Shown in pieces: positions 6,733-26,150 of a stretch of 63,041 bases of DNA. Position 1 is the stretch's first letter; the number at the start of each line of letters is the position of its first letter. The position numbers and the translations under genes were made by a program. The stretch is taken from NCBI GenBank assembly GCA_016193315.1, contig JACPSJ010000006.1:1-63041 (forward strand), in the 5' to 3' direction. The stretch is from Candidatus Kerfeldbacteria bacterium. GTDB lineage: Bacteria > Patescibacteriota > Patescibacteriia > SBBC01 > CAIJZX01. The notes below the pieces were generated by a model, which was not told the DNA's origin, made no database searches, and worked only from the letters and a program-made list of their open reading frames with translations.

Positions 6733-6805
6733 GGAGGGAAAAGGGCGAAACGCGTGGATAACTACAAAAAACTTGACACGAAGTGGAGTTTCTGTCGTGC
6801 TGTTG

Positions 6806-16623: not shown

Positions 16624-16709
16624 GCCGGGGTGGTGAAATGGCAGACACGCTAGGTTTAGGACCTAGTCTCCGCAAGGAGGTGGAGGTTCGAATCCTCTCC
16701 CCGGCACCA
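16624..16709 (+). tRNA. tRNA-Leu (anticodon UAG), long variable arm, encoded CCA
   Basis: Acceptor GCCGGGG/CCCCGGC; anticodon stem CTAGG/CCTAG with loop TTTAGGA (TAG at 16657-16659); variable arm CTCCGCAAGGAGGTG; T arm GAGGTTCGAATCCTC; ACCA end. Confidence 0.9.
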
Positions 16710-18140
16710 GTCAGTAAATGAGCGAAAATCGCGCGCGCTCGACCACCCGATTTTCGCTTCGTAGCCGAGTTTTCTCCCTTTCAAAAGAAAGTTCGAGCCG
16801 ATATTTTTCAGAAATGCACGAAGTTCGGCTGGCTCGCCGCGGTTAGCCAGGATTTTGGCTTGTTTATTGCGTAAAAGAAACTCTTTCATCGGTTCGAGCC
16901 AAAAACTGCCTTTCTGCCGAAGTTCATCAATTCGCTGTTCTAAAGAAACCCTTTGGCCAAGAAGTTTCTCTTTCTTAGCTTTATACTCGCTGGCTTCAAT
17001 AGCGCCTTCCAAGTGAGAGTCGAGCAGGCGGTCTAGTTTCACGTCCGTGGCCTTTATTTGGTCTCCAAGCGACATTACCAGCTCACCAGACTGCCTTGCT
17101 TCCTGTTCTCGATCTTCTTCTAGCTTCGCCAACATCTTGTCTGTCCAATCATCGGGAAGTGCTAGGTTTTTGTAGATCGTTTGAATCTGCTCGACTAACG
17201 CTTCTTCTCGCAAGTAGCCTTTTTCAGAACAGAAACCCTTTTTCTTAGTACAGCGATAGTACGTATGTCCTTTCTGAACTTCGGCAGTTATGTAACAACC
17301 GCAGGAGCATTTTATCAGTGCGCCGAACAAATGACTCTTATTGTGTTTCGCTTGAGGTTTACCGCGGCGAGCCATGACCGCTTGGCACTCGTCGAATAAT
17401 CGTTTGGAGATAATTGGTTTGTGCGCCGCTGGGTATAATTCTCCGTTGTAACGAATTAGTCCGGAGTAAAATGGATTGCGGAGTAACTTTTGGACGTTAC
17501 CTATAGCTATCGGACCACCAAAGCGAGTTGTCAGACCTTTTTTGCTGAATAAAATAGCGAGGTCTTGAAAACCATACTCCCCGGTAGCATATAGTTGGAA
17601 CATTTTTCTAATAAGCGGTGCGGTTTTATCATCAACGATAATGGTTTTATTTATCCGATCATTATCGTAACCCAGCGGCGCCCAACCTGGCCAAACTCCG
17701 CGACGAAGTTTTTGTCGCTGACCGCGTTTAATATTTTCGCGGAGATTATCGACGAAGTATTTGGATTGGCCAAAAGCAATCGAGAGCATAAATAATCCTT
17801 GCGGCGTTGGCTCAAACCAAAAGGTCGGAAACTTCATGGCTTTGAGTAATCCGCGATCTACCAAGTGAATTATTCGACCACCATCAACGGAATTGCGTGC
17901 CAAGCGGTCGGGATGCCAAGCGAGTATTCCGTCAGCCTTACCTTTCTCGATTGAATCCAGCATTTCGCCGAACTTCGTTCGGCCCGGTTCCTTGGCGGTT
18001 TTTGCTTCCTGAAAGGAAGCGACGATTTCAAGTTTTTCTTTGGCGGCAAATTCTTTTAATTCAATTAATTGGGCTTCAATACTTAAAACCTGTTGTGAAT
18101 CTTCCTCGGTAGATTTTCTAGCGTAGAGATAATATTTCAT
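16656..18140 (-). CDS. Large serine recombinase (resolvase domain + recombinase domain + zinc-ribbon/coiled-coil region)
   Basis: N-terminal YARKST(E)...QLIEL...ILAWHPDRLARN resolvase catalytic core, CxxC...C pattern and a long coiled-coil. The last 18 codons read through the tRNA-Leu 3' half (16656-16709). Confidence 0.9.
   Translation of the reverse strand: MKYYLYARKSTEEDSQQVLSIEAQLIELKEFAAKEKLEIVASFQEAKTAKEPGRTKFGEMLDSIEKGKADGILAWHPDRLARNSVDGGRIIHLVDRGLLKAMKFPTFWFEPTPQGLFMLSIAFGQSKYFVDNLRENIKRGQRQKLRRGVWPGWAPLGYDNDRINKTIIVDDKTAPLIRKMFQLYATGEYGFQDLAILFSKKGLTTRFGGPIAIGNVQKLLRNPFYSGLIRYNGELYPAAHKPIISKRLFDECQAVMARRGKPQAKHNKSHLFGALIKCSCGCYITAEVQKGHTYYRCTKKKGFCSEKGYLREEALVEQIQTIYKNLALPDDWTDKMLAKLEEDREQEARQSGELVMSLGDQIKATDVKLDRLLDSHLEGAIEASEYKAKKEKLLGQRVSLEQRIDELRQKGSFWLEPMKEFLLRNKQAKILANRGEPAELRAFLKNIGSNFLLKGRKLGYEAKIGWSSARDFRSFTDWCRGEDSNLHLLAETRS
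16704..16781 (+). repeat. Recombination-site copy A (next to the tRNA; lies inside the recombinase 3' coding end)
   Basis: 48-bp core identical to copy C, plus 23-30 bp (TTTCGCTTCGTAGCCGAGTTTTC...) shared in inverted orientation with copy B. The core contains the dyad GCGAAAATCG-N16-CGATTTTCGC. Confidence 0.8.
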
Positions 18141-18153
18141 ATCCTAGGGTTAG

Positions 18154-18428
18154 GAGAGAAAAGCCCGCGTTCGCCCGCGCCCTTAAGGGCGCAAAGGGGG
18201 AAAACTCGGCTACGAAGCGAAAATCGGGTGGTCGGCCGCGGCCGATTTTCGCTCATTTACCGACTGGTGCAGTATATACGCGCAGATTCGAACGGATTTT
18301 GCGGGCGGCGGCTAGCGCCCCTTCGCCCCCGCAGCCGCCGCCCGGGCGCGCCTTTTCAAAAACCGCCAAGCAACCGGTAAAAAATATCGGCTCGAACTTT
18401 CTTTTGGGGCGAACGCGGGCTTTTCTCT
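18154..18428 (-). repeat. Recombination-site copy B: inverted, junction-type (attP-like) copy carrying a relic recombinase C-terminus, enclosed by 22-bp inverted repeats
   Basis: The reverse complement of 18200-18357 equals [left arm of C, 87/87] + [core with 5 substitutions, 4 in the central 8 nt] + [right arm of A]. The plus strand encodes ...KLGYEAKIGWSAAADFRSFTDWCSIYAQIRTDFAGGG* followed by a 13-bp GC hairpin. 18154-18176 and 18407-18428 are inverted repeats. Confidence 0.75.
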
Positions 18429-18491
18429 TCCGTATTCCTATTATGAATATTCCTCAAGTGAATATATGATGATTACTGAATACTGTCAAAT

Positions 18492-18716
18492 ATGCGAAAA
18501 AACATATACTCACCGATTAGCAAGAGAATTGTCCACAAGTTAAAATTGGCTAGAAAACAGGCTGGTTTGGATCAAAAACAGGTGGCAAAACACCTTGGTG
18601 TTACCCAGTCTTTGGTTTCTAAAATTGAATCCGGCCAAGTTCGGCTTGATGTGACACAGCTACTTGAATTAGCTCGACTTTATCAAAAACACGTCACATT
18701 CTTTCTGGAACAATGA
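18492..18716 (+). CDS. XRE-family helix-turn-helix protein, probable R-M controller (C) protein
   Basis: 74 aa with LDQKQVAKHLGVTQSLVSKIESGQ. The stop overlaps the start of the downstream nuclease gene in an ATGA overlap. TGAATA repeats (18444, 18459, 18477), including the palindrome GAATATTC, lie upstream. Confidence 0.8.
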   Translation: MRKNIYSPISKRIVHKLKLARKQAGLDQKQVAKHLGVTQSLVSKIESGQVRLDVTQLLELARLYQKHVTFFLEQ

Positions 18717-20725
18717 ATCCTCAAGTCAGAAAACTAAGAATTCACGGTGACAATATTCTTGAGTGCGAACACGCTCTTGAATTGCTTTCTAGCTCTCTAA
18801 ATAATAAATCCCCAGAAATAAAACTCGTTGCTAGCCCACCATACGCGCCGGAGTACGAGCTTCAAACTGATTCCGGTGGAATTATTAGGGTCAAACTTTT
18901 CCCGGGCTATGGACGCTGGGAGTTTAAACTAGAAAAGTACTTGGTTTCACGAGGGGCGTCGCTACGTGAGGCTACTGATGCCTTGATAACTGAGTTAGTC
19001 TCGGACAAAGATAAGTCTTTTGAAAAACCATTGCTCGCTTTAGAATTCAGCGGGGCATTACCTGCAGGGAACAATGCTTGGCAAAGGAGTGGAAGAGCTC
19101 TAGCACTAGCCGGTAGCCATGTACCTTTTTTATACTTTGCCGAGATCGGTGGCGTTGAACTTGATTCAGCAAGAAGAATCAAAGCGCCACGATTTCCGAA
19201 TCCCCTAGTTCCATTTTCATACTTAGCGGCTGGTCAAGAGGAAGGCACTATCTGTATGCCAATCTATGCACCAAGCCCATCTATTGATCTAAAAAACCTC
19301 GAACTGTTCAAAAAATGTTTTGGTAATATTGACGCATTAGTTCTCACTAGAGCAATTATTCTTGACGATAAAAAGGGCGCTGAATCAGTAACTAAAGTAA
19401 TTCGTGAAAAAGCTAAGGAAGTCGTAAGAATACTAGCTGAACAAAGAAAAAAGAAGGATATTCTTACCCCAATTGAGTGGGTTCAACTATTAGAAAGAAA
19501 AACGGGCCTAGAGAAAGCGAAGTGGCTGATTAATCGCTCCATGAATTGGAGAAAGAAGACTGGCATTAAAGGTCTTACCCCTTCTTTTAAAAAACTGATT
19601 CTGGCTACACAAAAAATTGGTGCTTCGGCGCTTGGATCAGTTGATATGCCCATGTGTATCCTGGACGAGGCAAAAAGGACTGACTTTGCTAAAAAGGTGG
19701 GACTAATCTATAAAAACAAAGTTTCGTCGGATTTTTTGACTTGGTTAGCTCAAAATAATAAGCCACTAGCGATTGTTTGGGTAGCCGGATTCAAGCCAAG
19801 GGGTGATGATTCGCGACCGGATCGAGGTCTAACACCGTTAGTAAGAATGATTTTGGGTCAAGATGAAGTGGATATGCTTACTGTAATTTATGGACCCGCA
19901 AAGCCAAGTACATGGAAAAAACTCCGTGATGATATGTTCTCGCTCTCCCGAGATAACGGATTATGGGAAGCGATACTGCATCTTAGTAATGGCGTTATCG
20001 CAGATAGCCCAACCAATAAGCTAGGAATCGTTGGATTTAAAATACCAAAGAGAGCGTTTGAAGCAAACAATGAACCGCTTGTTGCGGCCCTAGACCTTCC
20101 AGTTTTTGGGGAACACGATATTGATTCTGTAATCCACAGTCTTTTTTCTCTGGCCGAGGAACAGGGAATATTTGAAGCAATGTGCAACCCACCCGGTGGT
20201 GATTGGAGCGGAGTTAATATTTTTGATTTTGAATCAAGAATACGTTATCGATGGACATCATTACCCAGAGTTTCCGGACCGACTACAAAAAGACCAGATC
20301 ATTTAGTGCAATTGAATGCCCTTGACCTATTACTGACGATTGAGTCTAAGGAATCTTCAAGAACGCTAGAAAAAAATATCGGACCAAGACTGATCAAGTA
20401 TGTTAAGACTTTAATTAGTATAGCCCCAAATTCTTTTAGAATTTCACTTGGTGATCCTTGGAGACCCTTTGAAACAGAGTATACAAAAAAGTTTTCTAGC
20501 TACATCTCGGGGGCAGCTATAAAGTACAAAGATGAGAACGATCTACGCGAAACCTTAAAAACCTCGCAAACAGATATAGTATTTGGTGTTGAATTTCTAC
20601 CAAAAGAACAGTCCTATAAAGTGGTCATACATTTGCAGGCCAACAAACAAGGAAGGGCAATTTTCTCAATAATAAAAAAACTATCGCGCCGATTTGGTGG
20701 CGGAGTTTCAGTAGTAGAGCACTAA
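18713..20725 (+). CDS. Putative restriction endonuclease (670 aa) with a C-terminal PD-x14-ExK nuclease motif; Type IIS-like architecture
   Basis: RPDHLVQLNALDLLLTIESK at residues 527-546 (nt about 20291-20350). The gene is translationally coupled to a C protein and converges on two methyltransferase genes. I recognise no other family. Confidence 0.55.
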   Translation: MNPQVRKLRIHGDNILECEHALELLSSSLNNKSPEIKLVASPPYAPEYELQTDSGGIIRVKLFPGYGRWEFKLEKYLVSRGASLREATDALITELVSDKDKSFEKPLLALEFSGALPAGNNAWQRSGRALALAGSHVPFLYFAEIGGVELDSARRIKAPRFPNPLVPFSYLAAGQEEGTICMPIYAPSPSIDLKNLELFKKCFGNIDALVLTRAIILDDKKGAESVTKVIREKAKEVVRILAEQRKKKDILTPIEWVQLLERKTGLEKAKWLINRSMNWRKKTGIKGLTPSFKKLILATQKIGASALGSVDMPMCILDEAKRTDFAKKVGLIYKNKVSSDFLTWLAQNNKPLAIVWVAGFKPRGDDSRPDRGLTPLVRMILGQDEVDMLTVIYGPAKPSTWKKLRDDMFSLSRDNGLWEAILHLSNGVIADSPTNKLGIVGFKIPKRAFEANNEPLVAALDLPVFGEHDIDSVIHSLFSLAEEQGIFEAMCNPPGGDWSGVNIFDFESRIRYRWTSLPRVSGPTTKRPDHLVQLNALDLLLTIESKESSRTLEKNIGPRLIKYVKTLISIAPNSFRISLGDPWRPFETEYTKKFSSYISGAAIKYKDENDLRETLKTSQTDIVFGVEFLPKEQSYKVVIHLQANKQGRAIFSIIKKLSRRFGGGVSVVEH

Positions 20726-21580
20726 CTAATAGTTTAAATAGAGGGATTCTAAGACGGGCTCTATTTTTTTGTCTTGTAGTTTCCTAAACGGTGCGTTTCC
20801 TGACTTCAGGAGCACATGTTTTTTATAAAGCCTTCTTGGAATTGATACTATAAAGGATTTAGTGCCACGTTTTCCATCATAGGACAAAGCAAATTTTATT
20901 TGTTTTTTGTTCAGATTCTCCAAGAATTTAATAAACCTCGAGTAGTCGATGGATTCAATATACCTAGATTTTGTATTGAAGTAGGGTGGGTCTAAGTAAA
21001 CAAAGTCTCCTTCTTTTACGTTTTTAGTGATCACTTCATAATCTCCACTTACAAAATGATAATTAGGTATTTTTTTAGACCACCCCCAAACAACTTTCTT
21101 AAAAGACTTGGGGGAGATACCTTTTCTTGAATGATGGAGCGAATTATTAAACTCGCCGTTTTTATTAAATCTAATTAATCCATTTACACAGGTTCTGGAT
21201 AAAAAAAGTAGGTCGTGAGGGTTTTTAGTCTTATTAAAGTTATCACGAACAGTATAAAAATATTTATACCCTTTCTTTTGTAGAAAATTCCACCTTTTTT
21301 CATACTCAGAAACTACTTCCCCCGGCGTTTTCTGAACGGCTTTCCAAATGTCGATCAGCGGTTTATATAAGTCTCCGCCAATTGCCTTTTTGGGTGTCAG
21401 AAAGCCAAGCACCGAACCACCACCCAAAAATGGTTCATAGTAAGTATTTACGTGACTCGGAAAGTAGCTAACTATTTGTTTAGCTTGAGATCGCTTACTA
21501 CCACTCCATTTTATGAGAGGTGGGAGGATCATATTAGAAAGAAGTTTGGACTTTACAATTCTCGAGTCTTTTTTTTGCAA
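20726..21580 (-). CDS. D12-class (Dam-like) N6-adenine DNA methyltransferase
   Basis: PLIKWSGSKR, EPFLGGGS (motif I) and VYLDPPY (motif IV). The likely true start is the ATG at 21532, 1 nt after the upstream stop, giving 268 aa. Confidence 0.85.
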   Translation of the reverse strand: MQKKDSRIVKSKLLSNMILPPLIKWSGSKRSQAKQIVSYFPSHVNTYYEPFLGGGSVLGFLTPKKAIGGDLYKPLIDIWKAVQKTPGEVVSEYEKRWNFLQKKGYKYFYTVRDNFNKTKNPHDLLFLSRTCVNGLIRFNKNGEFNNSLHHSRKGISPKSFKKVVWGWSKKIPNYHFVSGDYEVITKNVKEGDFVYLDPPYFNTKSRYIESIDYSRFIKFLENLNKKQIKFALSYDGKRGTKSFIVSIPRRLYKKHVLLKSGNAPFRKLQDKKIEPVLESLYLNY

Positions 21581-22988
21581 TATCTACATACTCTTTTTCT
21601 AACTCAATGCCAATATAATGCCTATTAAGCATTTTTGCGGCCACACACTCTGACCCGGCTCCTGTAAATGGGGCAAGAATAATATCCCCCTCTTTTGAGG
21701 CAACCGAGATAATCCTTTTACAAACACTTAGTGGTTTTTGGGTTGGATGTTTGCCGAATTTAGTTTCGTTAGATTCTTTATTATTTGGAATATCCCACAC
21801 GGTTCGCATTTGTTTACCTTCAGGTTTGAGAAGGTCGTTTGGACTAAAAAAGGCCTTTGCTGTTTTGTAATCGAAATAATATGATCGTTTCTTTCCAACA
21901 TGTCCCCAGAGTAAATTTTCATGACTCGCTGTCAACCTTCGGCCTGATAAATTTGGGAAGGCATTTCTTTTGTACCAAATAACCTCATTGATAATCTCGA
22001 TCTCAAGTAGTTGGAAAATTGTATTTATTACTCCAATATTGTGGTAAGTGCCAAAAACCCATATGGAGCCGGTTTCTTTCAATATTCTTTTACATTCTGA
22101 TAGCCAAGCAAAAGAAAACTCAAATAATTCTGAAAGGCTTTGATTGTCCCACGCCTCCATTACCTTATTCCATTTTCCACCGAACCCCTTGTAGCCACTA
22201 ACCGCAGACCACTGCAGCTTATTACCCTTAGAAAGATTATAAGGTGGATCGGCAATAATTAGATCAACGGACTTGCTAGGAGTTTTTTTAAGATTTTCAA
22301 TTGCATCTCCACAAACTACTTGGTCAATTGGTAACGGTCTACTTTGGACTTCTAGTTCTTGGGTAAAAGTTATTTTTGGTAGAGTTTCTATCCTAGTTTC
22401 TGTCTTAATAACATCAATTACAATTCCCTGAATATTTAAACGATCTGGCTCCAACGTAATTGGTTCATATTTTGAATTTCCGGGAATTAGCGTGACGTTG
22501 TTTCTTCCTTTAGAAAACTTTTTTAGGGTTGCTTCGCTGTTGTCTATCAGAGCCACAACCTTTTGCCCAGTTTCAGCAAAGTTTTGTCGACGTAAAATTA
22601 CAACATCGCCATCATCAATATTTTCCTCGACCATACTATCACCAGTAACTTTTAAAGCAAAAAAATCTCCGCCACGCGACAGAATTGATCGAGGGACTGT
22701 AATAGATTCTTTTTCTTCTATGGCTTCGATTGGATTCCCAGCAGCAATGGTTCCCGAAAGGGGGATGCGTACCATTTGTTCTTTTTGGTAAACATCAATG
22801 GCACGAGGCTGATTATCCTCTTTTCGTAGGTAGCCTAAATCTTCCAGTGCTCGCACATGGTGATGCGCAGTGGATACAGCAGAAAGTCCTAAATGCCTCC
22901 CAATCTCCTCTAGGGAGGGTGCGAACCCCTTTTTCTGGGTATAGGACTTAATGAAGTCCAATGCCTGTTTTTGCCGCTTGGTGAGCAT
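21534..22988 (-). CDS. Fusion protein: full-length LexA (winged HTH + S24 autopeptidase) joined to a beta-class N6/N4 DNA methyltransferase
   Basis: The N-terminal part has the LexA HTH (PSLEEIGRHLGLSAVSTAHHHVRALEDLGYL), the cleavage site IAA-GNP, the catalytic Ser in GDSM and the Lys in ATLKKF. The C-terminal part has DLIIADPPYNL (motif IV) followed by PFTGAGSE (motif I). It is a single uninterrupted 484-aa ORF. Confidence 0.85.
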   Translation of the reverse strand: MLTKRQKQALDFIKSYTQKKGFAPSLEEIGRHLGLSAVSTAHHHVRALEDLGYLRKEDNQPRAIDVYQKEQMVRIPLSGTIAAGNPIEAIEEKESITVPRSILSRGGDFFALKVTGDSMVEENIDDGDVVILRRQNFAETGQKVVALIDNSEATLKKFSKGRNNVTLIPGNSKYEPITLEPDRLNIQGIVIDVIKTETRIETLPKITFTQELEVQSRPLPIDQVVCGDAIENLKKTPSKSVDLIIADPPYNLSKGNKLQWSAVSGYKGFGGKWNKVMEAWDNQSLSELFEFSFAWLSECKRILKETGSIWVFGTYHNIGVINTIFQLLEIEIINEVIWYKRNAFPNLSGRRLTASHENLLWGHVGKKRSYYFDYKTAKAFFSPNDLLKPEGKQMRTVWDIPNNKESNETKFGKHPTQKPLSVCKRIISVASKEGDIILAPFTGAGSECVAAKMLNRHYIGIELEKEYVDIAKKRLENCKVQTSF

Positions 22989-23003
22989 AGAATAGGGGAT
23001 ATA

Positions 23004-23063
23004 TTGACTTTCGATTTATTTTCGATTACATTACTATTGTACCGGTTAAACCGGATCCGTCAA
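23004..23063. promoter_or_regulatory. Overlapping divergent promoters with candidate operators between the LexA-methyltransferase gene and the rightward genes
   Basis: Minus strand: TTGACG (23063-23058), a 16-nt spacer, TACAAT (23041-23036). The spacer holds the palindrome CCGGTT-A-AACCGG (23042-23054). Plus strand: TTGACT (23004-23009), a 17-nt spacer, TACATT (23027-23032). That spacer holds the direct repeat TTTCGATT x2. Confidence 0.5.
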
Positions 23064-23287
23064 GGACGGAGCTTATCCACATAACTGCCGAATCTATGGC
23101 ACATCCAAAGACCACTGGTCGACGGGTAGCCCGAACGGCTTCAAAACTGTTACGAAGCAGTCGAAGTCCCAAGGTGCGATCTGTTGCTGGAAGCGCTTTG
23201 AGCCAAAAACACGGACGCCGAGCAAAAAGATAACGTCGGTGTAAAAATAGGTTAATTTTCAGATATTCTTAATGTTGCATCAATCAC

Positions 23288-23524
23288 ATGACTTGGAAAG
23301 AAAAACAGGGAGATGAGCTTAAGCGGGAGGCACTAAAGCATGGATTGGCCCCCAACGAGTGGTACGACAGTAATGGAGTTCTTCGTGAAGCGGCATTACA
23401 GGAAAGATTGAGGTCTGCCAAAACCTCGCGCTTCGTCCAAAAGACCTGGATGATCGCTCTGATTTCGGCTATCGCTTCAGTAGTAAGCGCGATTGCGGCT
23501 TGGGTTGCAATTTTAAAGTCATAA
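23288..23524 (+). CDS. Small tail-anchored membrane protein (78 aa)
   Basis: Charged N-terminal two-thirds, then a single C-terminal TM helix, WMIALISAIASVVSAIAAWVAIL. Confidence 0.55.
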   Translation: MTWKEKQGDELKREALKHGLAPNEWYDSNGVLREAALQERLRSAKTSRFVQKTWMIALISAIASVVSAIAAWVAILKS

Positions 23525-23557
23525 AAAAGTTACCATCATACAACCTGCGTAAACTCC

Positions 23558-24445
23558 ATGTCTAAAAAATCTAAGAACCGTAATATCCCACAACTCCCCA
23601 GACAACTTAAGCGGCCTGAAAAGTTCCACTCATTCGCCGACTGTGTAAGCTTGTTAAAAACATCAGTTTATATGATCGTGCGCGGACGTGAGCACGATAA
23701 TAATGGTCAGAACGGAATGAGGTGGTTGACCCTAGGGTCAGGTTTTGTTGCTGGACAATATCGAATGCTGTCGGCAAGCCACGTTTTTGACGACCCTAAC
23801 AACACCGACCCGTTAGCTCACCACCAGGACACAGACAGATATTACTTGTTGAAAGTGGATGACCTTGGTCGATGGCACGCTGCGATACGGCAACTTAAGC
23901 TCAACGAAACTTTATTTTTGTACCCCGACAGAGACTTGGCAGTGCTTTATCTTGACGAAGGGTTTTATGGGGTCGACGGAAAAATGTATCACGAAAAAAA
24001 TGACTTTATTCGTATCTCCAAGGATTTTCACATCATTGGAACATCCGTGGGCATACTTGGATACCCCTTGTCCAAGCTAGAATTTGATGACTCTGATATT
24101 AACAAGCCACGTCTTGGTAATGTATTGCTCCGAGTTGACCAAGGCGTGATTAACACTCGTTACCGAATCAACGAACATCGACATCAGTACGAATTTACAA
24201 TGGCCTTCAACCCTGGCAATAGTGGCGGACCTGTGTTTGATGCAAAAACCGGACGAGCGATCTCTATCGTACATGGTTTTAGGGTTATTAATATGAGGCT
24301 GGAAGAAAAAGACCTTCCGAAAGCATTTCAGCCAAAGCAATACACTGAAAAAAGCTATCTAGAACCGTTGAACGCAAGCTACTCGGTTGGAGTTGCGACT
24401 CCATCGTTTATCGATCTTTTAGGCCAGCACAACATTACGCATTAG
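23558..24445 (+). CDS. Trypsin-like (S1/chymotrypsin-fold) serine protease
   Basis: His in SASHVF, Asp in DRDLAVLYLD and Ser in NPGNSGGPVFD, in the canonical order. No obvious signal peptide. Confidence 0.75.
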   Translation: MSKKSKNRNIPQLPRQLKRPEKFHSFADCVSLLKTSVYMIVRGREHDNNGQNGMRWLTLGSGFVAGQYRMLSASHVFDDPNNTDPLAHHQDTDRYYLLKVDDLGRWHAAIRQLKLNETLFLYPDRDLAVLYLDEGFYGVDGKMYHEKNDFIRISKDFHIIGTSVGILGYPLSKLEFDDSDINKPRLGNVLLRVDQGVINTRYRINEHRHQYEFTMAFNPGNSGGPVFDAKTGRAISIVHGFRVINMRLEEKDLPKAFQPKQYTEKSYLEPLNASYSVGVATPSFIDLLGQHNITH

Positions 24446-24508
24446 GATTTTACCTACGTATTCCGAATCTGTACTAATTCGGAATTCGTAGAAAAACTTG
24501 AAATTGTC

Positions 24509-24643
24509 GAAAAGGCGCGCCCGGGCGGCGGCTGCGGGGGCGAAGGGGCGCTAGCCGCCGCCCGCAAAATCCGTTCGAATCTGCGCGTATATACTGCACC
24601 AGTCAGTAAATGAGCGAAAATCGCGCGCGCTCGACCACCCGAT
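24509..24643 (+). repeat. Recombination-site copy C (right island end; carries the detached native 3' end and hairpin of the recombinase gene)
   Basis: The minus strand encodes IGWSSARDFRSFTDWCSIYAQIRTDFAGGG* plus the hairpin GCGGGCGGCGGCT/AGCCGCCGCCCG. The 87-bp left arm is identical to B (inverted) and the 48-bp core is identical to A (direct). Confidence 0.8.
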
Positions 24644-24680
24644 CCTTTCAGATAAGGAATAATTCTCCTACAATATTCAC

Positions 24681-25400
24681 ATGGAGATTCTTTACATCGC
24701 GCTTCTGACACTGGTCGCCGCCGCCATTGGTACGATCACTGGATTCGGGACATCGACCCTGATGATTCCGGTTTTGGCGATATTCTTGCCACCCGTGGAG
24801 GCGATATTTCTGGTGGCGATTATTCATTGGTTCGGCAACGTTTGGAAAGTCGCTCTGTTTCGCTCAGGATTTAATATTCGCCTCCTCTCCTTATTTGGCG
24901 TTATCGGCCTGGCGACGAGTTACCTCGGCGCGTATTTCTCACTTGGTACGAACGAGCACATGCTACTGCGACTCCTCGGTGCGTTTCTCGTGGGTTACGC
25001 GCTGTTATTGATGATTCGATCAAAATTAATAATTCCGGCCGGAAATGTGACAGCCCTATCCGGCGGAGCGCTGTCAGGATTTTTCGCCGGGATGTTCGGG
25101 ATCGGCGGTGCTATCCGCGGTATGTTCTTGGCGGCCTTTGATCTGCCGAAGGCGGTGTATATTGCCACGGTCGGCGCCATTGGGCTCTTGGTCGACTCAA
25201 CGCGCATCGCTACCTATTACCACGGCGGCGCCACGCTGCCGAAAGAACTCTCGTACGGATTACTCCTCTTCATTCCAATTTCGTTCGTCGGGGCACAGAT
25301 CGCCAAAAAGATCGTTGACAAAATCCCCCAGCATAGCTTTCGTGCCGTGATTGCCGCCTTTCTGTTGATCGTTGGGCTAAAACTGATCGCCTGGCCGTGA
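24681..25400 (+). CDS. TauE/SafE (TSUP) family anion exporter-like membrane protein
   Basis: 239 aa with multiple TM helices. The N-terminus LVAAAIGTITGFGTSTLMIPVL and a repeated GIGGA motif are typical of the family. Confidence 0.75.
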   Translation: MEILYIALLTLVAAAIGTITGFGTSTLMIPVLAIFLPPVEAIFLVAIIHWFGNVWKVALFRSGFNIRLLSLFGVIGLATSYLGAYFSLGTNEHMLLRLLGAFLVGYALLLMIRSKLIIPAGNVTALSGGALSGFFAGMFGIGGAIRGMFLAAFDLPKAVYIATVGAIGLLVDSTRIATYYHGGATLPKELSYGLLLFIPISFVGAQIAKKIVDKIPQHSFRAVIAAFLLIVGLKLIAWP

Positions 25401-25579
25401 AGCTTCACGCCGGCGTGCCGAAACCGGGGCGTGGGAAATACAACGTTTTTCCCCCTGAAAATCCGTCGGGATTCTCTTAGATAGTGTCCAACAACCTGAA
25501 AGCCACAAACAATCAGTCGATTTTCCCTACCGCCTGCCCGGCCTGCCCGAGCAGCCCGAAGTGTTTGCCCGCGCACCAG

Positions 25580-25604
25580 CCCCGCACCAGTGCTCGGTGC
25601 GGGG
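25580..25604. terminator. GC hairpin CCCCGCACC/GGTGCGGGG between convergent genes (same stem recurs at 52749-52780)
   Basis: 9-bp perfect stem with a 7-nt loop, lying between the TauE-like gene (+) and the 86-aa ORF (-). No clear U-tract, so terminator function is uncertain. Confidence 0.4.
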
Positions 25605-25670
25605 CGGATGCGGGGTTTCGCCGCGCCCGGTCCGGCGTGGTGCCGCCAACTCCTGTTGGCGGGGCTCCAC

Positions 25671-25931
25671 TTATGCCCCGATGTTGAAAACGTCGATTTT
25701 TTCTTCGGGCAGAACGAGGAAGCTGAGGTCCGGCCGTTTGATCATGAGGTACGGCTTGTCCTTGACGTAGAATGTCGTTTGGCCGGTGCGCTTGGCCTCA
25801 AAGATTAGTCGCTCCAAGATAATTCGGCTAGTGGAGCGGAGAAATTCCATCGCTTCCCGGTCACCCTTCATATGGTGAACGACGATATATCCCTCCTCGG
25901 TATCGCGTTTGAATGATTGGGTGTTTTCCAT
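25671..25931 (-). CDS. Hypothetical small protein (86 aa)
   Basis: Balanced, non-repetitive composition and a candidate TATATA -10 upstream. No clear SD and no recognisable family. Confidence 0.45.
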   Translation of the reverse strand: MENTQSFKRDTEEGYIVVHHMKGDREAMEFLRSTSRIILERLIFEAKRTGQTTFYVKDKPYLMIKRPDLSFLVLPEEKIDVFNIGA

Positions 25932-25990
25932 CAGGCTGTCGATGAGGTGTCAGTACTATATAGTCTTTTCGCTTTTTCAACAAGCTAATC

Positions 25991-26018
25991 TTGACAGGTC
26001 GTCAGCGTCGGGTATACT
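25991..26018 (+). promoter_or_regulatory. Sigma70-type promoter upstream of the lamin-tail-domain protein gene
   Basis: TTGACA (25991-25996), a 16-nt spacer, TATACT (26013-26018). The leader contains the 9-bp GAAA-capped hairpin GGTGGTTCC-GAAA-GGAGCCACC. Confidence 0.6.
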
Positions 26019-26150
26019 GAAACCATAGACAAATTTTGGTGGTTCCGAAAGGAGCCACCGAAATGTTATCTACGAATAGTAAAAACCTATCGCGCGGATT
26101 GGGCCGCGAGGGCTACGAACCCACAAATAGGAGAGACTACGAATCTACGA

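Follow-up and report, generated by a model that had tools for sequence, protein, structure and literature searches.

Why would a small genomic island that sits at the end of a tRNA gene keep a second, complete and inverted copy of its own attachment site directly upstream of its recombinase gene? The question is raised by a 63,041-nucleotide (nt) stretch of DNA from a Candidatus Kerfeldbacteria bacterium (Patescibacteriota; GenBank assembly GCA_016193315.1, contig JACPSJ010000006.1), hereafter the window, in which a large serine recombinase (LSR) has placed a 7.9-kb low-GC island with type II restriction-modification cargo at the 3' end of a tRNA-Leu gene. A first-pass annotation had described a serine-recombinase island at this tRNA together with three related sites: A next to the tRNA, B upstream of the recombinase gene, and C at the far end of the island. 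The recombinase domains, the tRNA call, and the contrast in GC content (37–48% in the island versus 55–60% in its flanks) bear out the island, and the coordinates of the sites, the 48-nt repeat shared by A and C, and the inverted orientation of B were confirmed. The locus looks as a tRNA-gene island should, with an intact tRNA, a displaced end repeat, an odd composition and, in a close relative (L001), other cargo in the same place. The reading that we favor, with moderate confidence, is that of a tRNA-inserting LSR island in which B is a recombination-competent spare copy of attP, the site of the circular form, and probably also an operator, and in which the recombinase cassette can be flipped.

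Three attachment sites and a recombinase gene that runs into a tRNA

Judged from their sequences, A can be assigned as attL, C as attR, and B as an intact, inverted attP; their coordinates, with those of the other features, are collected in Table 1. The assignment of B follows from its covariation with the target tRNA, described below, and from its reverse complement, which equals the P arm of C, the predicted crossover region O, and the P' arm of A in succession, i.e. the junction of an excised circle, as had been recognized earlier. The left arm is identical in B and C at 87 of 87 positions and the right arm in B and A at 29 of 30; over the 48-mer, B and A agree at 43 of 48 positions. Repeats this long are far beyond chance. 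Downstream of the tRNA-Leu gene, the 48-mer contains GTCAGTAAATGAGCGAAAATCG, and the hairpin in the P' arm of attL may act as terminator of the tRNA transcript. In a search of the island against Rfam, the tRNA was the sole match.

The attachment site and the recombinase gene overlap. In the integrated form, the open reading frame (ORF) of the recombinase reads through the repeat into the tRNA and ends in CRGEDSNLHLLAETRS before the stop codon; a deletion by recombination of A with C would give a 493-aa protein ending in FTDWCSIYAQIRTDFAGGG and a stop codon, and B encodes the same ending. On its plus strand, site B contains this native ending as WCSIYAQIRTDFAGGG and a stop codon, followed by a GC-rich terminator hairpin. 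In antisense, the P arm of site C corresponds to the native tail and terminator, and it contains a mimic of the tRNA T-loop, GTTCGAAT. The observation that the integrated gene ends in the tRNA, with its native ending left at C and present again in B, was thus reproduced, and integration swaps the native tail and terminator of the recombinase for antisense tRNA sequence. A separate tail peptide encoded by B was ruled out, as the frame has no start codon.

Table 1. Features of the island, its attachment sites, and the adjoining older insert (positions in the window)
Feature	Position	Strand	Remarks
tRNA-Leu(tag), integration target	16624–16709	+	ARAGORN; Rfam RF00005, 57 bits
O of attL, GCACCA	16704–16709	+	final 6 nt of tRNA; predicted crossover region from attL/attR overlap in relatives
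P' arm of attL (site A)	16710–16808	+	antisense of the last ~33 recombinase codons; inverted repeats with B block
Dyad GCGAAAATCG-N16-CGATTTTCGC	16722–16757	+	hairpin in P' arm
Perfect direct repeat, A and C	16704–16751 / 24596–24643		48 nt
Inverted repeat, A and B	16704–16781 / 18193–18270		78 nt, 92% complementary
Inverted repeat, B and C	18223–18362 / 24504–24643		140 nt, 95% complementary
LSR gene, integrated form	16656–18140	-	494 aa; antisense-tRNA tail
Two recombinase-gene stretches copied inverted elsewhere	17984–18039	-	codons ~46–53 and ~34–40; copies at 18357–18377 (B block) and 24490–24509 (beside C)
Right arm of perfect 22-nt stem closing B block	18155–18176		14 nt from recombinase ATG
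Site B, putative complete attP copy, inverted relative to attL and attR	18193–18362	-	P arm 18271–18362, O 18265–18270, P' 18193–18264
B block, left part	18357–18428		copy of codons 46–53 18357–18377; 27-nt copy 18380–18406; left arm of stem 18407–18428
Inverted repeat	16782–16808 / 18380–18406		27 nt, 100%; not reported before
Inverted repeat flanking B	18155–18176 / 18407–18428		22 nt, 100%; not reported before
Inverted repeat	17984–18004 / 18357–18377		21 nt, 95%; not reported before
Inverted repeat	18020–18039 / 24490–24509		20 nt, 95%; not reported before
Best sigma-70-like promoter, TTGACA-17-TATATT, toward recombinase gene	18461–18489	-	11/12 consensus matches
Cargo region	18492–24445		Pfam; PADLOC REase_II 3e-112, MTase_II
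XRE/C-protein-like helix-turn-helix	18492–18716
Type II restriction endonuclease	18713–20725		670 aa
Dam-like methyltransferase	20726–21580	-
LexA-S24-methyltransferase fusion	21534–22988	-	484 aa
78-aa ORF	within the cargo region
Trypsin-like protease	23558–24445
Site C, putative attR: P arm and O (GCACCA, 24596–24601)	24504–24601	+	alignment; P-arm motif spacing
P' arm relic at left edge of older tandem element	24602–24643	+	42 nt; missing from attR of L001 and L002
Apparent older-insert remnant	24644–25990		TauE-family permease 24681–25400; 86-aa ORF 25671–25931 (-)

The recombinase and its relatives

By domain content, the enzyme is an LSR, and it lies outside the named subfamilies CcrA/B/C and XisF. 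Pfam detects Resolvase (PF00239, 5.4e-20, residues 4–150) and Recombinase (PF07508, 1.1e-15), and Zn_ribbon_recom (PF13408) reaches 20.3 bits, under its cut-off of 25.3 bits. The catalytic residues Arg8 and Ser10 as well as Cys278, 280, 297, and 304 are invariant in an alignment of 22 sequences, and a profile of the family matches the structure of the C-terminal domain of A118 integrase (4KIS) with 1.8e-14 over positions 158–442. The NCBIfam models CcrB and XisF score 107.6 and 67.8 bits against cut-offs of 900 and 375, respectively. Only serine-recombinase domains are present, which sets the protein apart from the SSV-type tyrosine recombinases. Beyond the part aligned with the A118 integrase structure there is a C-terminal extension of ~50 aa (FLKNIGSN..., residues ~443–494). 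It coincides exactly with the part encoded by the P' arm, and in several subfamilies its DNA contains hairpins of differing sequence.

A total of 7012 homologues were found at E ≤ 1e-20. In about two-thirds of the 182 that we inspected, the C-terminus runs past a Trp into the antisense of the tRNA acceptor and T arms, giving antisense T-arm motifs such as DSNP and ESNL (for instance ...WCxGxDSNP...). We fetched 162 related loci; those derived from genomes come mostly from metagenome-assembled genomes of Patescibacteria, and the others from metagenome contigs and two viral contigs. A convergent tRNA overlaps the 3' end of the recombinase gene in ~105 of the 162 loci, with 14 amino-acid types represented in the genome set; in most of the remaining loci, the contig ends at the recombinase gene. 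Nearly all loci with enough upstream DNA have a copy of B. Far from being a one-off, the arrangement seen in the window is the usual layout of a very large family.

The inverted repeats of A and B span 75–159 nt and extend ~6 nt into the tRNA, those of B and C span 86–139 nt with the far end of the island, and both are usually 100% identical. Over 125 distinct loci, the A and B arms show 140 mismatches in 11,991 nt, although the elements themselves are far apart. Islands in the family range from 2.4 to 11.5 kb, often with a single cargo gene. The minimal islands (2.4–3.5 kb) contain no conserved accessory gene or gene for a recombination directionality factor, only one variable cargo gene each; bare as they are, such a factor could still be encoded by the host or have gone unrecognized. 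The viral contigs (L171 and L172, IMG/VR) carry relatives 43–48% identical to the recombinase, and the remaining viral matches are unrelated small resolvases. Contigs often end 200–300 bp upstream of the recombinase ATG or at its 3' end, the positions of the inverted repeats (examples are L003, L006, L007, L012, L052, L034, L068, L075, and L078). Either the elements fragment short-read assemblies or these breaks reflect real heterogeneity.

Predicted crossover position and target recognition

The 48-bp core common to A and C had been proposed as the recombination site. Two relatives point to a much shorter one. In L001, a recombinase that is 88% identical occupies the same tRNA-Leu between syntenic host flanks, with different cargo; in L002, a 74% identical recombinase lies in a tRNA-Met. 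Both loci carry all three sites, and in both attR ends at the hexamer that terminates the tRNA, with host DNA straight after it. The sequence common to attL and attR is only GCACCA in L001 and only GTACCA in L002, and B of L002 carries TGGTAC; B covaries with the target tRNA. Among ~40 loci in which all three sites were mapped, attL and attR overlap by 3–9 bp (mode 6), comprising the last bases of the tRNA, and a long overlap is seen only in this window (48 nt) and in L044 (147 nt). These data place the predicted crossover in the terminal ~6 nt of the tRNA (GCACCA), outside the dyad. The central 8 nt in which B differs from A and C, earlier suggested as the region of cleavage, lie in the hairpin loop and hence outside this crossover. 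In L001 and L002, A and B are 99–100% identical, and the B-specific loop changes are peculiar to the present island.

The T-loop of the tRNA-Leu reads GGTTCGAATCC. In 49 loci, the motif GTTCG begins 18 nt from O on the side of the tRNA, and in the P arm of attP it begins 23 nt ahead of O; 11 further loci have spacings of 17/22 and 16/21, and the consensus of 81 loci shows the same T-loop offset pattern. In LSRs, an outer half-site motif that lies 5 bp further out in attP than in attB is a hallmark known from structural work on the A118/LI integrase. The spacing suggests that the attP arm is a mimic of the tRNA T-loop shifted outward by 5 bp, and that the recombinase reads the universal tRNA T-loop (GTTCGAAT) as the left half-site motif of attB. 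Such use of the universal T-loop as a half-site would explain the spread of the family over many tRNAs, and a non-conserved right half-site would explain why attL and attR can be reused as targets. The motif IRTxF of the native tail is the antisense reading of the T-loop mimic.

The B block

Site B is part of a larger block, which measures 214–284 nt in one large clade (63 loci). Read on the sense strand of the recombinase, it consists of the left arm of a stem, the antisense of the 27 nt preceding P', the antisense of codons 46–53, the terminator, the P arm, O, P', and the right arm of the stem, with the ATG 25–77 nt past the end of P'. In 61 of the 63 loci, the stem that closes the block pairs perfectly (median 19 nt), with sequences that vary between subfamilies; the copy of codons 46–53 is found in 59. 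The 20-nt piece tracks its own gene, with 0.8 mismatches to it versus 3.4 to the genes of other elements. Taken as a whole, the block corresponds to a recombinase 3' end that has been internally deleted and circularly permuted. B is simpler and contiguous in a second clade, whose members have long arms and Asn or Gln as targets. In the window, positions 18380–18406 are a copy of the 27 nt directly preceding the P' arm in the recombinase gene, and the four shorter inverted repeats in Table 1 had escaped the first-pass annotation.

The best promoter-like site toward the recombinase gene lies upstream of the block, and at the equivalent place L001 has TTTGCA-17-TATATT. Being a consensus match only, this site would put the B block within a leader of ~300 nt. 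Pairing at the RNA level, between the leader and the 3' end of the mRNA, was considered as the constraint on the repeats and dropped, as the mismatch spectra show no G:U excess (40 versus 47 for the main arms, 17 versus 27 for the 20-nt piece). Mismatches without an RNA-type G:U bias argue for a constraint at the level of DNA.

Units of ~230 nt, made up of the P arm, O, and P' together with the terminator and the 20-nt and 27-nt pieces, are also present without a recombinase next to them (L178:4078–4377, L019:3427, L059:8770, L102:159, and L155:4539), and in L178 the unit forms a head-to-tail tandem opened at O. These orphan copies suggest a non-autonomous mini-element that is mobilised in trans.

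Flipped loci and tandem arrays

The proposal that the recombinase gene forms an invertible cassette gains support from three loci in which it lies flipped, with both ends exactly at the predicted crossover sites. In L030, L109, and L150, the tRNA lies upstream of the recombinase gene in the same orientation and is joined at O to the P' arm of the B side. Positions 269–1870 of L109 are colinear, at 86%, with the O-to-O segment of the unflipped L104, and the flanks of L109 are swapped, with the tRNA upstream and a native-type tail at the end of the ORF. In L178 and L176, the 3' end of the recombinase gene is joined to the reversed left part of B; in L178, the pieces beside the two P arms are exchanged, as expected from inversion between P arms. 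One locus looks cargo-flipped, and a scan for cargo-flipped states, noisy as it was, gave no clear further cases. By this evidence, the inverted repeats are recombinogenic in nature.

Tandem arrays are found at L014:5700–6796, L177:4658–6833, and L084:4050–4955, in addition to a relic in the window. In the arrays, a recombinase gene acquires a foreign native-type tail, its 3' end being joined to the P arm of a neighboring element that belongs to a different subtype. The second recombinase gene of L014 starts at 6746. Four proteins with native-type tails (P0104, P0121, P0152, and P0142) were examined as candidates for a free circular form; their genes proved to be joined to the P arm of a tandem neighbor or to rearranged B units and did not come from circles.

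What the second attP may be for

We propose that the element enters as a circle and that attP, into which the final ~35 codons of the recombinase gene extend, would integrate into the end of the tRNA. The gene would thereby lose its native tail and terminator and come to face the tRNA, with attL (A) as an ORF that runs into antisense tRNA and attR (C) as the displaced native tail and terminator. As attL would keep the half-site of the tRNA, it should still be a usable target, which would account for the tandem arrays. Recombination of B with attL could then set the recombinase cassette in either orientation. In the common state, the gene would keep its promoter but end in a tail derived from the tRNA, with no terminator behind it; the rare flipped state would give it back the native tail and terminator and place it behind the tRNA. 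Located in the leader, B would bind the enzyme and probably serve as an operator for autoregulation, and its sequence and position suggest both this role and that of a spare attP. The first-pass suggestion of B as a non-recombining operator or decoy would also be plausible. All of these functional steps, i.e. binding, catalysis, regulation, and the effect of the tail, we infer from sequence.

Several points weigh against this reading. Flipped loci are rare (3 versus ~105, or ~35 to 1), and flipping may be infrequent, selected against, or accidental. The arms being identical, exchange at O by the recombinase is indistinguishable from RecA recombination within the repeats. L109 is without the left remainder of B where a simple flip of the cassette would place it; a simple flip and integration via B were both tried for this locus, and neither prediction for the downstream flank is cleanly met. 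Its history is probably more complex, involving an event at the level of an array. Canonical LSRs are not known to recombine attL with attP unless a directionality factor is present. The evidence on orientation comes from assemblies of different relatives. In the window, B and A differ at 6 of 78 positions, and the copy may be drifting. The promoter was called by its match to the consensus, and little is known of promoters in these bacteria. Finally, the identity of the repeats reaches far beyond an att footprint of ~50 bp, for which neither a role in recombination nor one as an operator accounts, and the circular permutation of the B block relative to the gene and the 20–27-nt pieces that covary with their own gene are left unaccounted for, as is the lack of any G:U bias.

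Alternatively, B could be purely cis-regulatory: after integration has split the working attP, the recombinase would repress its own gene by way of B, which would act as an attP-like operator located in the 5' leader. B would then have no use in recombination, and the few flipped loci would be products of accidental homologous recombination between long inverted repeats. This explanation fits the location of B downstream of the best promoter-like site and a short, constant distance (25–77 nt) ahead of the ATG, as it does the lack of any other conserved regulator and the restriction of flipped states to only ~3% of loci, and autoregulation of Tn3 and gamma-delta resolvase via a recombination site at the promoter is classical. 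We nevertheless regard it as possible but doubtful: some 50 bp would suffice for an operator, against 170–280 nt in B that match both arms almost perfectly; an operator would need neither the terminator and native stop codon nor the extra gene fragments; B retains the exact O that matches the target tRNA; and rearrangements bounded at O do exist. Clearly less probable is a third explanation, in which the covarying inverted repeats (A/B, B/C, the 27-nt and 20-nt gene pieces, and the closing stem) shape a fold of single-stranded element DNA, for example during natural transformation, with B pairing as a splint with both attL (P' arm) and attR (P arm) and thus rebuilding a duplex attP from the integrated copy. 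Six pairs of inverted repeats are near-perfect, some of them just 20–27 nt long, segments that are contiguous in the gene are split in B exactly at the closing stem, as in the geometry of a three-way junction, the constraint without G:U bias would be one on DNA, and the elements have no transfer or packaging genes. Were it true, an LSR element would need neither a directionality factor nor machinery for the transfer of circles to pass from one ultra-small bacterium to another. Serine recombinases, however, act on two duplex sites by way of double-strand breaks; the single-stranded intermediate is hypothetical, the pairs cannot all form together in a planar structure, and gene conversion could account for the longer repeats.

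Two further explanations can be given hardly any weight. The mechanism envisaged in the first-pass annotation, with the 48-bp core as the recombination site, cleavage at the center of the dyad, and B disabled by its central 8 nt, draws on the 48 identical nt of A and C and on the fact that B differs mainly in the loop of the dyad. It is very hard to reconcile with an attR that ends at G(C/T)ACCA, without the dyad, in L001 and L002, with the overlap of 3–9 bp in ~40 loci, with loops that are identical between A and B in L001 and L002, and with half-site motifs that are centered on the end of the tRNA and not on the dyad; the 42 extra nt, moreover, border an insert of 1.35 kb that the syntenic site in L001 does not have. 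It would be just as surprising if B were a relic without function, left by a nested or aborted insertion, or an artefact of assembly, the latter an outcome that the annotation had itself raised. B does resemble a circularly permuted deletion derivative of the recombinase 3' end, and orphan copies as well as a tandem copy of the B unit exist, but the same block recurs in the same position in >100 independent assemblies with recombinases only 48–59% identical, and it tracks each element's own sequence. This conservation and concerted evolution refute both a relic and an artefact.

Cargo and an older insertion at the same tRNA

The cargo genes are listed in Table 1. The 484-aa fusion protein combines a LexA DNA-binding domain, an S24 self-cleaving peptidase, and an N6/N4 DNA methyltransferase; a LexA-like, possibly damage-responsive methyltransferase would be unusual. 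The XRE gene was rejected as a conserved regulator or directionality factor of the family, as minimal islands carry unrelated single genes, and here it probably encodes the controller protein of the restriction-modification system.

The 42 nt that follow O in site C adjoin a 1.35-kb stretch that is missing from the syntenic site of L001, with host similarity back at ~25991. This position marks them as the left edge, a P' arm, of an older, decayed element. To all appearances, the 1.35-kb insert is what is left of a member of the same family after the loss of its recombinase, and the current island inserted on the tRNA-proximal side of it. With the 42-nt relic lying beside C, A and C give the appearance of sharing a 48-bp core. 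In the host DNA beyond the attachment site (25991–26040; L001:5680–5730), a promoter-like CTTGACAGG-N17-GGTATACT, followed by CATAGACAAATTTTGGTGG, is conserved upstream of a gene for an LTD/PKD protein. Just inside site C, at 24449–24496, there is a conserved hairpin TACGTATTCCGAAT...ATTCGGAATTCGTA, which recurs, slightly altered, in L001 and L002.

Significance and relation to known systems

Serine integrases are, to our knowledge, textbook examples of enzymes that avoid tRNA genes. The family described here, an abundant one with thousands of members, mostly in Patescibacteria, does use them, and reading of the T-loop would account for its spread over at least 14 tRNA types. A full-text literature search, in which subscription journals were outside coverage, returned no published description of this recombinase family, and a very large family of the ultra-small bacteria of the candidate phyla radiation (CPR) is apparently undescribed. 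With islands of 2.4–11.5 kb, here carrying a restriction-modification system, its elements are candidate agents of gene flow into ultra-small genomes. For the recombination field, a second attP, three homogenised copies of the site, and flipped isomers are unusual, and the lack of a conserved directionality factor raises the question of how an LSR element controls direction and its own expression. LSRs with a conserved tRNA half-site as target could also be useful in genome engineering.

None of the systems with which we compared the island combines the features seen here. The closest in enzymology are the LSR integrases of A118/LI, Bxb1, and phiC31, which share the resolvase catalytic domain, the recombinase domain, and the zinc ribbon with coiled coil; the sequence pattern of the island and its relatives also fits the short att sites of these integrases, with a small crossover and a motif that lies 5 bp further out in attP than in attB. 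In LSR phages, attP is commonly located just upstream of the integrase gene, which is the place of B. The present family differs from them in targeting the 3' ends of tRNA genes, in having the working attP inside the enzyme's own 3' coding end and two inverted attP copies, in its family-specific C-terminal extension of ~50 aa, and in the lack of a conserved directionality factor. According to the Islander paper, a database publication of 2014, no serine integrases were known to target tRNA genes (PMC4383910).

In the placement of attP, the nearest counterparts are the SSV-type "suicidal" integrases of archaea, tyrosine recombinases in which attP lies in the integrase ORF, tRNAs are the targets, and the gene is altered by integration (PMC7253208). 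Here, too, the site lies inside the ORF, with O and P' in the last ~35 codons and the reading frame carried on into antisense tRNA, a likeness that is a functional analogy only. The SSV-type gene is split into two halves, whereas here the enzyme is a serine recombinase, the exchange would be confined to the terminator and the final ~15 codons, and an intact spare site is retained. Mycobacteriophage BPs and its relatives, with their integration-dependent immunity, likewise have attP in the 3' end of a gene whose C-terminus is changed by integration (PMC4557955); that gene, however, encodes a repressor, the integrase is a tyrosine recombinase, there is no second attP, and the consequence of the tail swap has been demonstrated there.

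The invertible segments of the Hin/Gin type offer a parallel of another kind. The gene hin lies within its own invertible segment, and in the present family, too, a serine recombinase gene lies between inverted sites, with both orientations seen among relatives. Hin, Gin, and Pin are small invertases that rely on an enhancer and Fis and have no integration function, in contrast to the 494-aa LSR described here, whose sites would be the attL and attP of an integrase, whose flipped state is rare, and whose part in catalyzing the flip is putative. Finally, the tRNA islands of tyrosine integrases resemble the island in their insertion at the 3' end of a tRNA, in the restoration of the tRNA by the element, and in tandem accretion; the island and its relatives differ from them in the superfamily of the recombinase, in an identity of just 3–9 bp between the attachment sites, and in their tiny size (2.4–11.5 kb).

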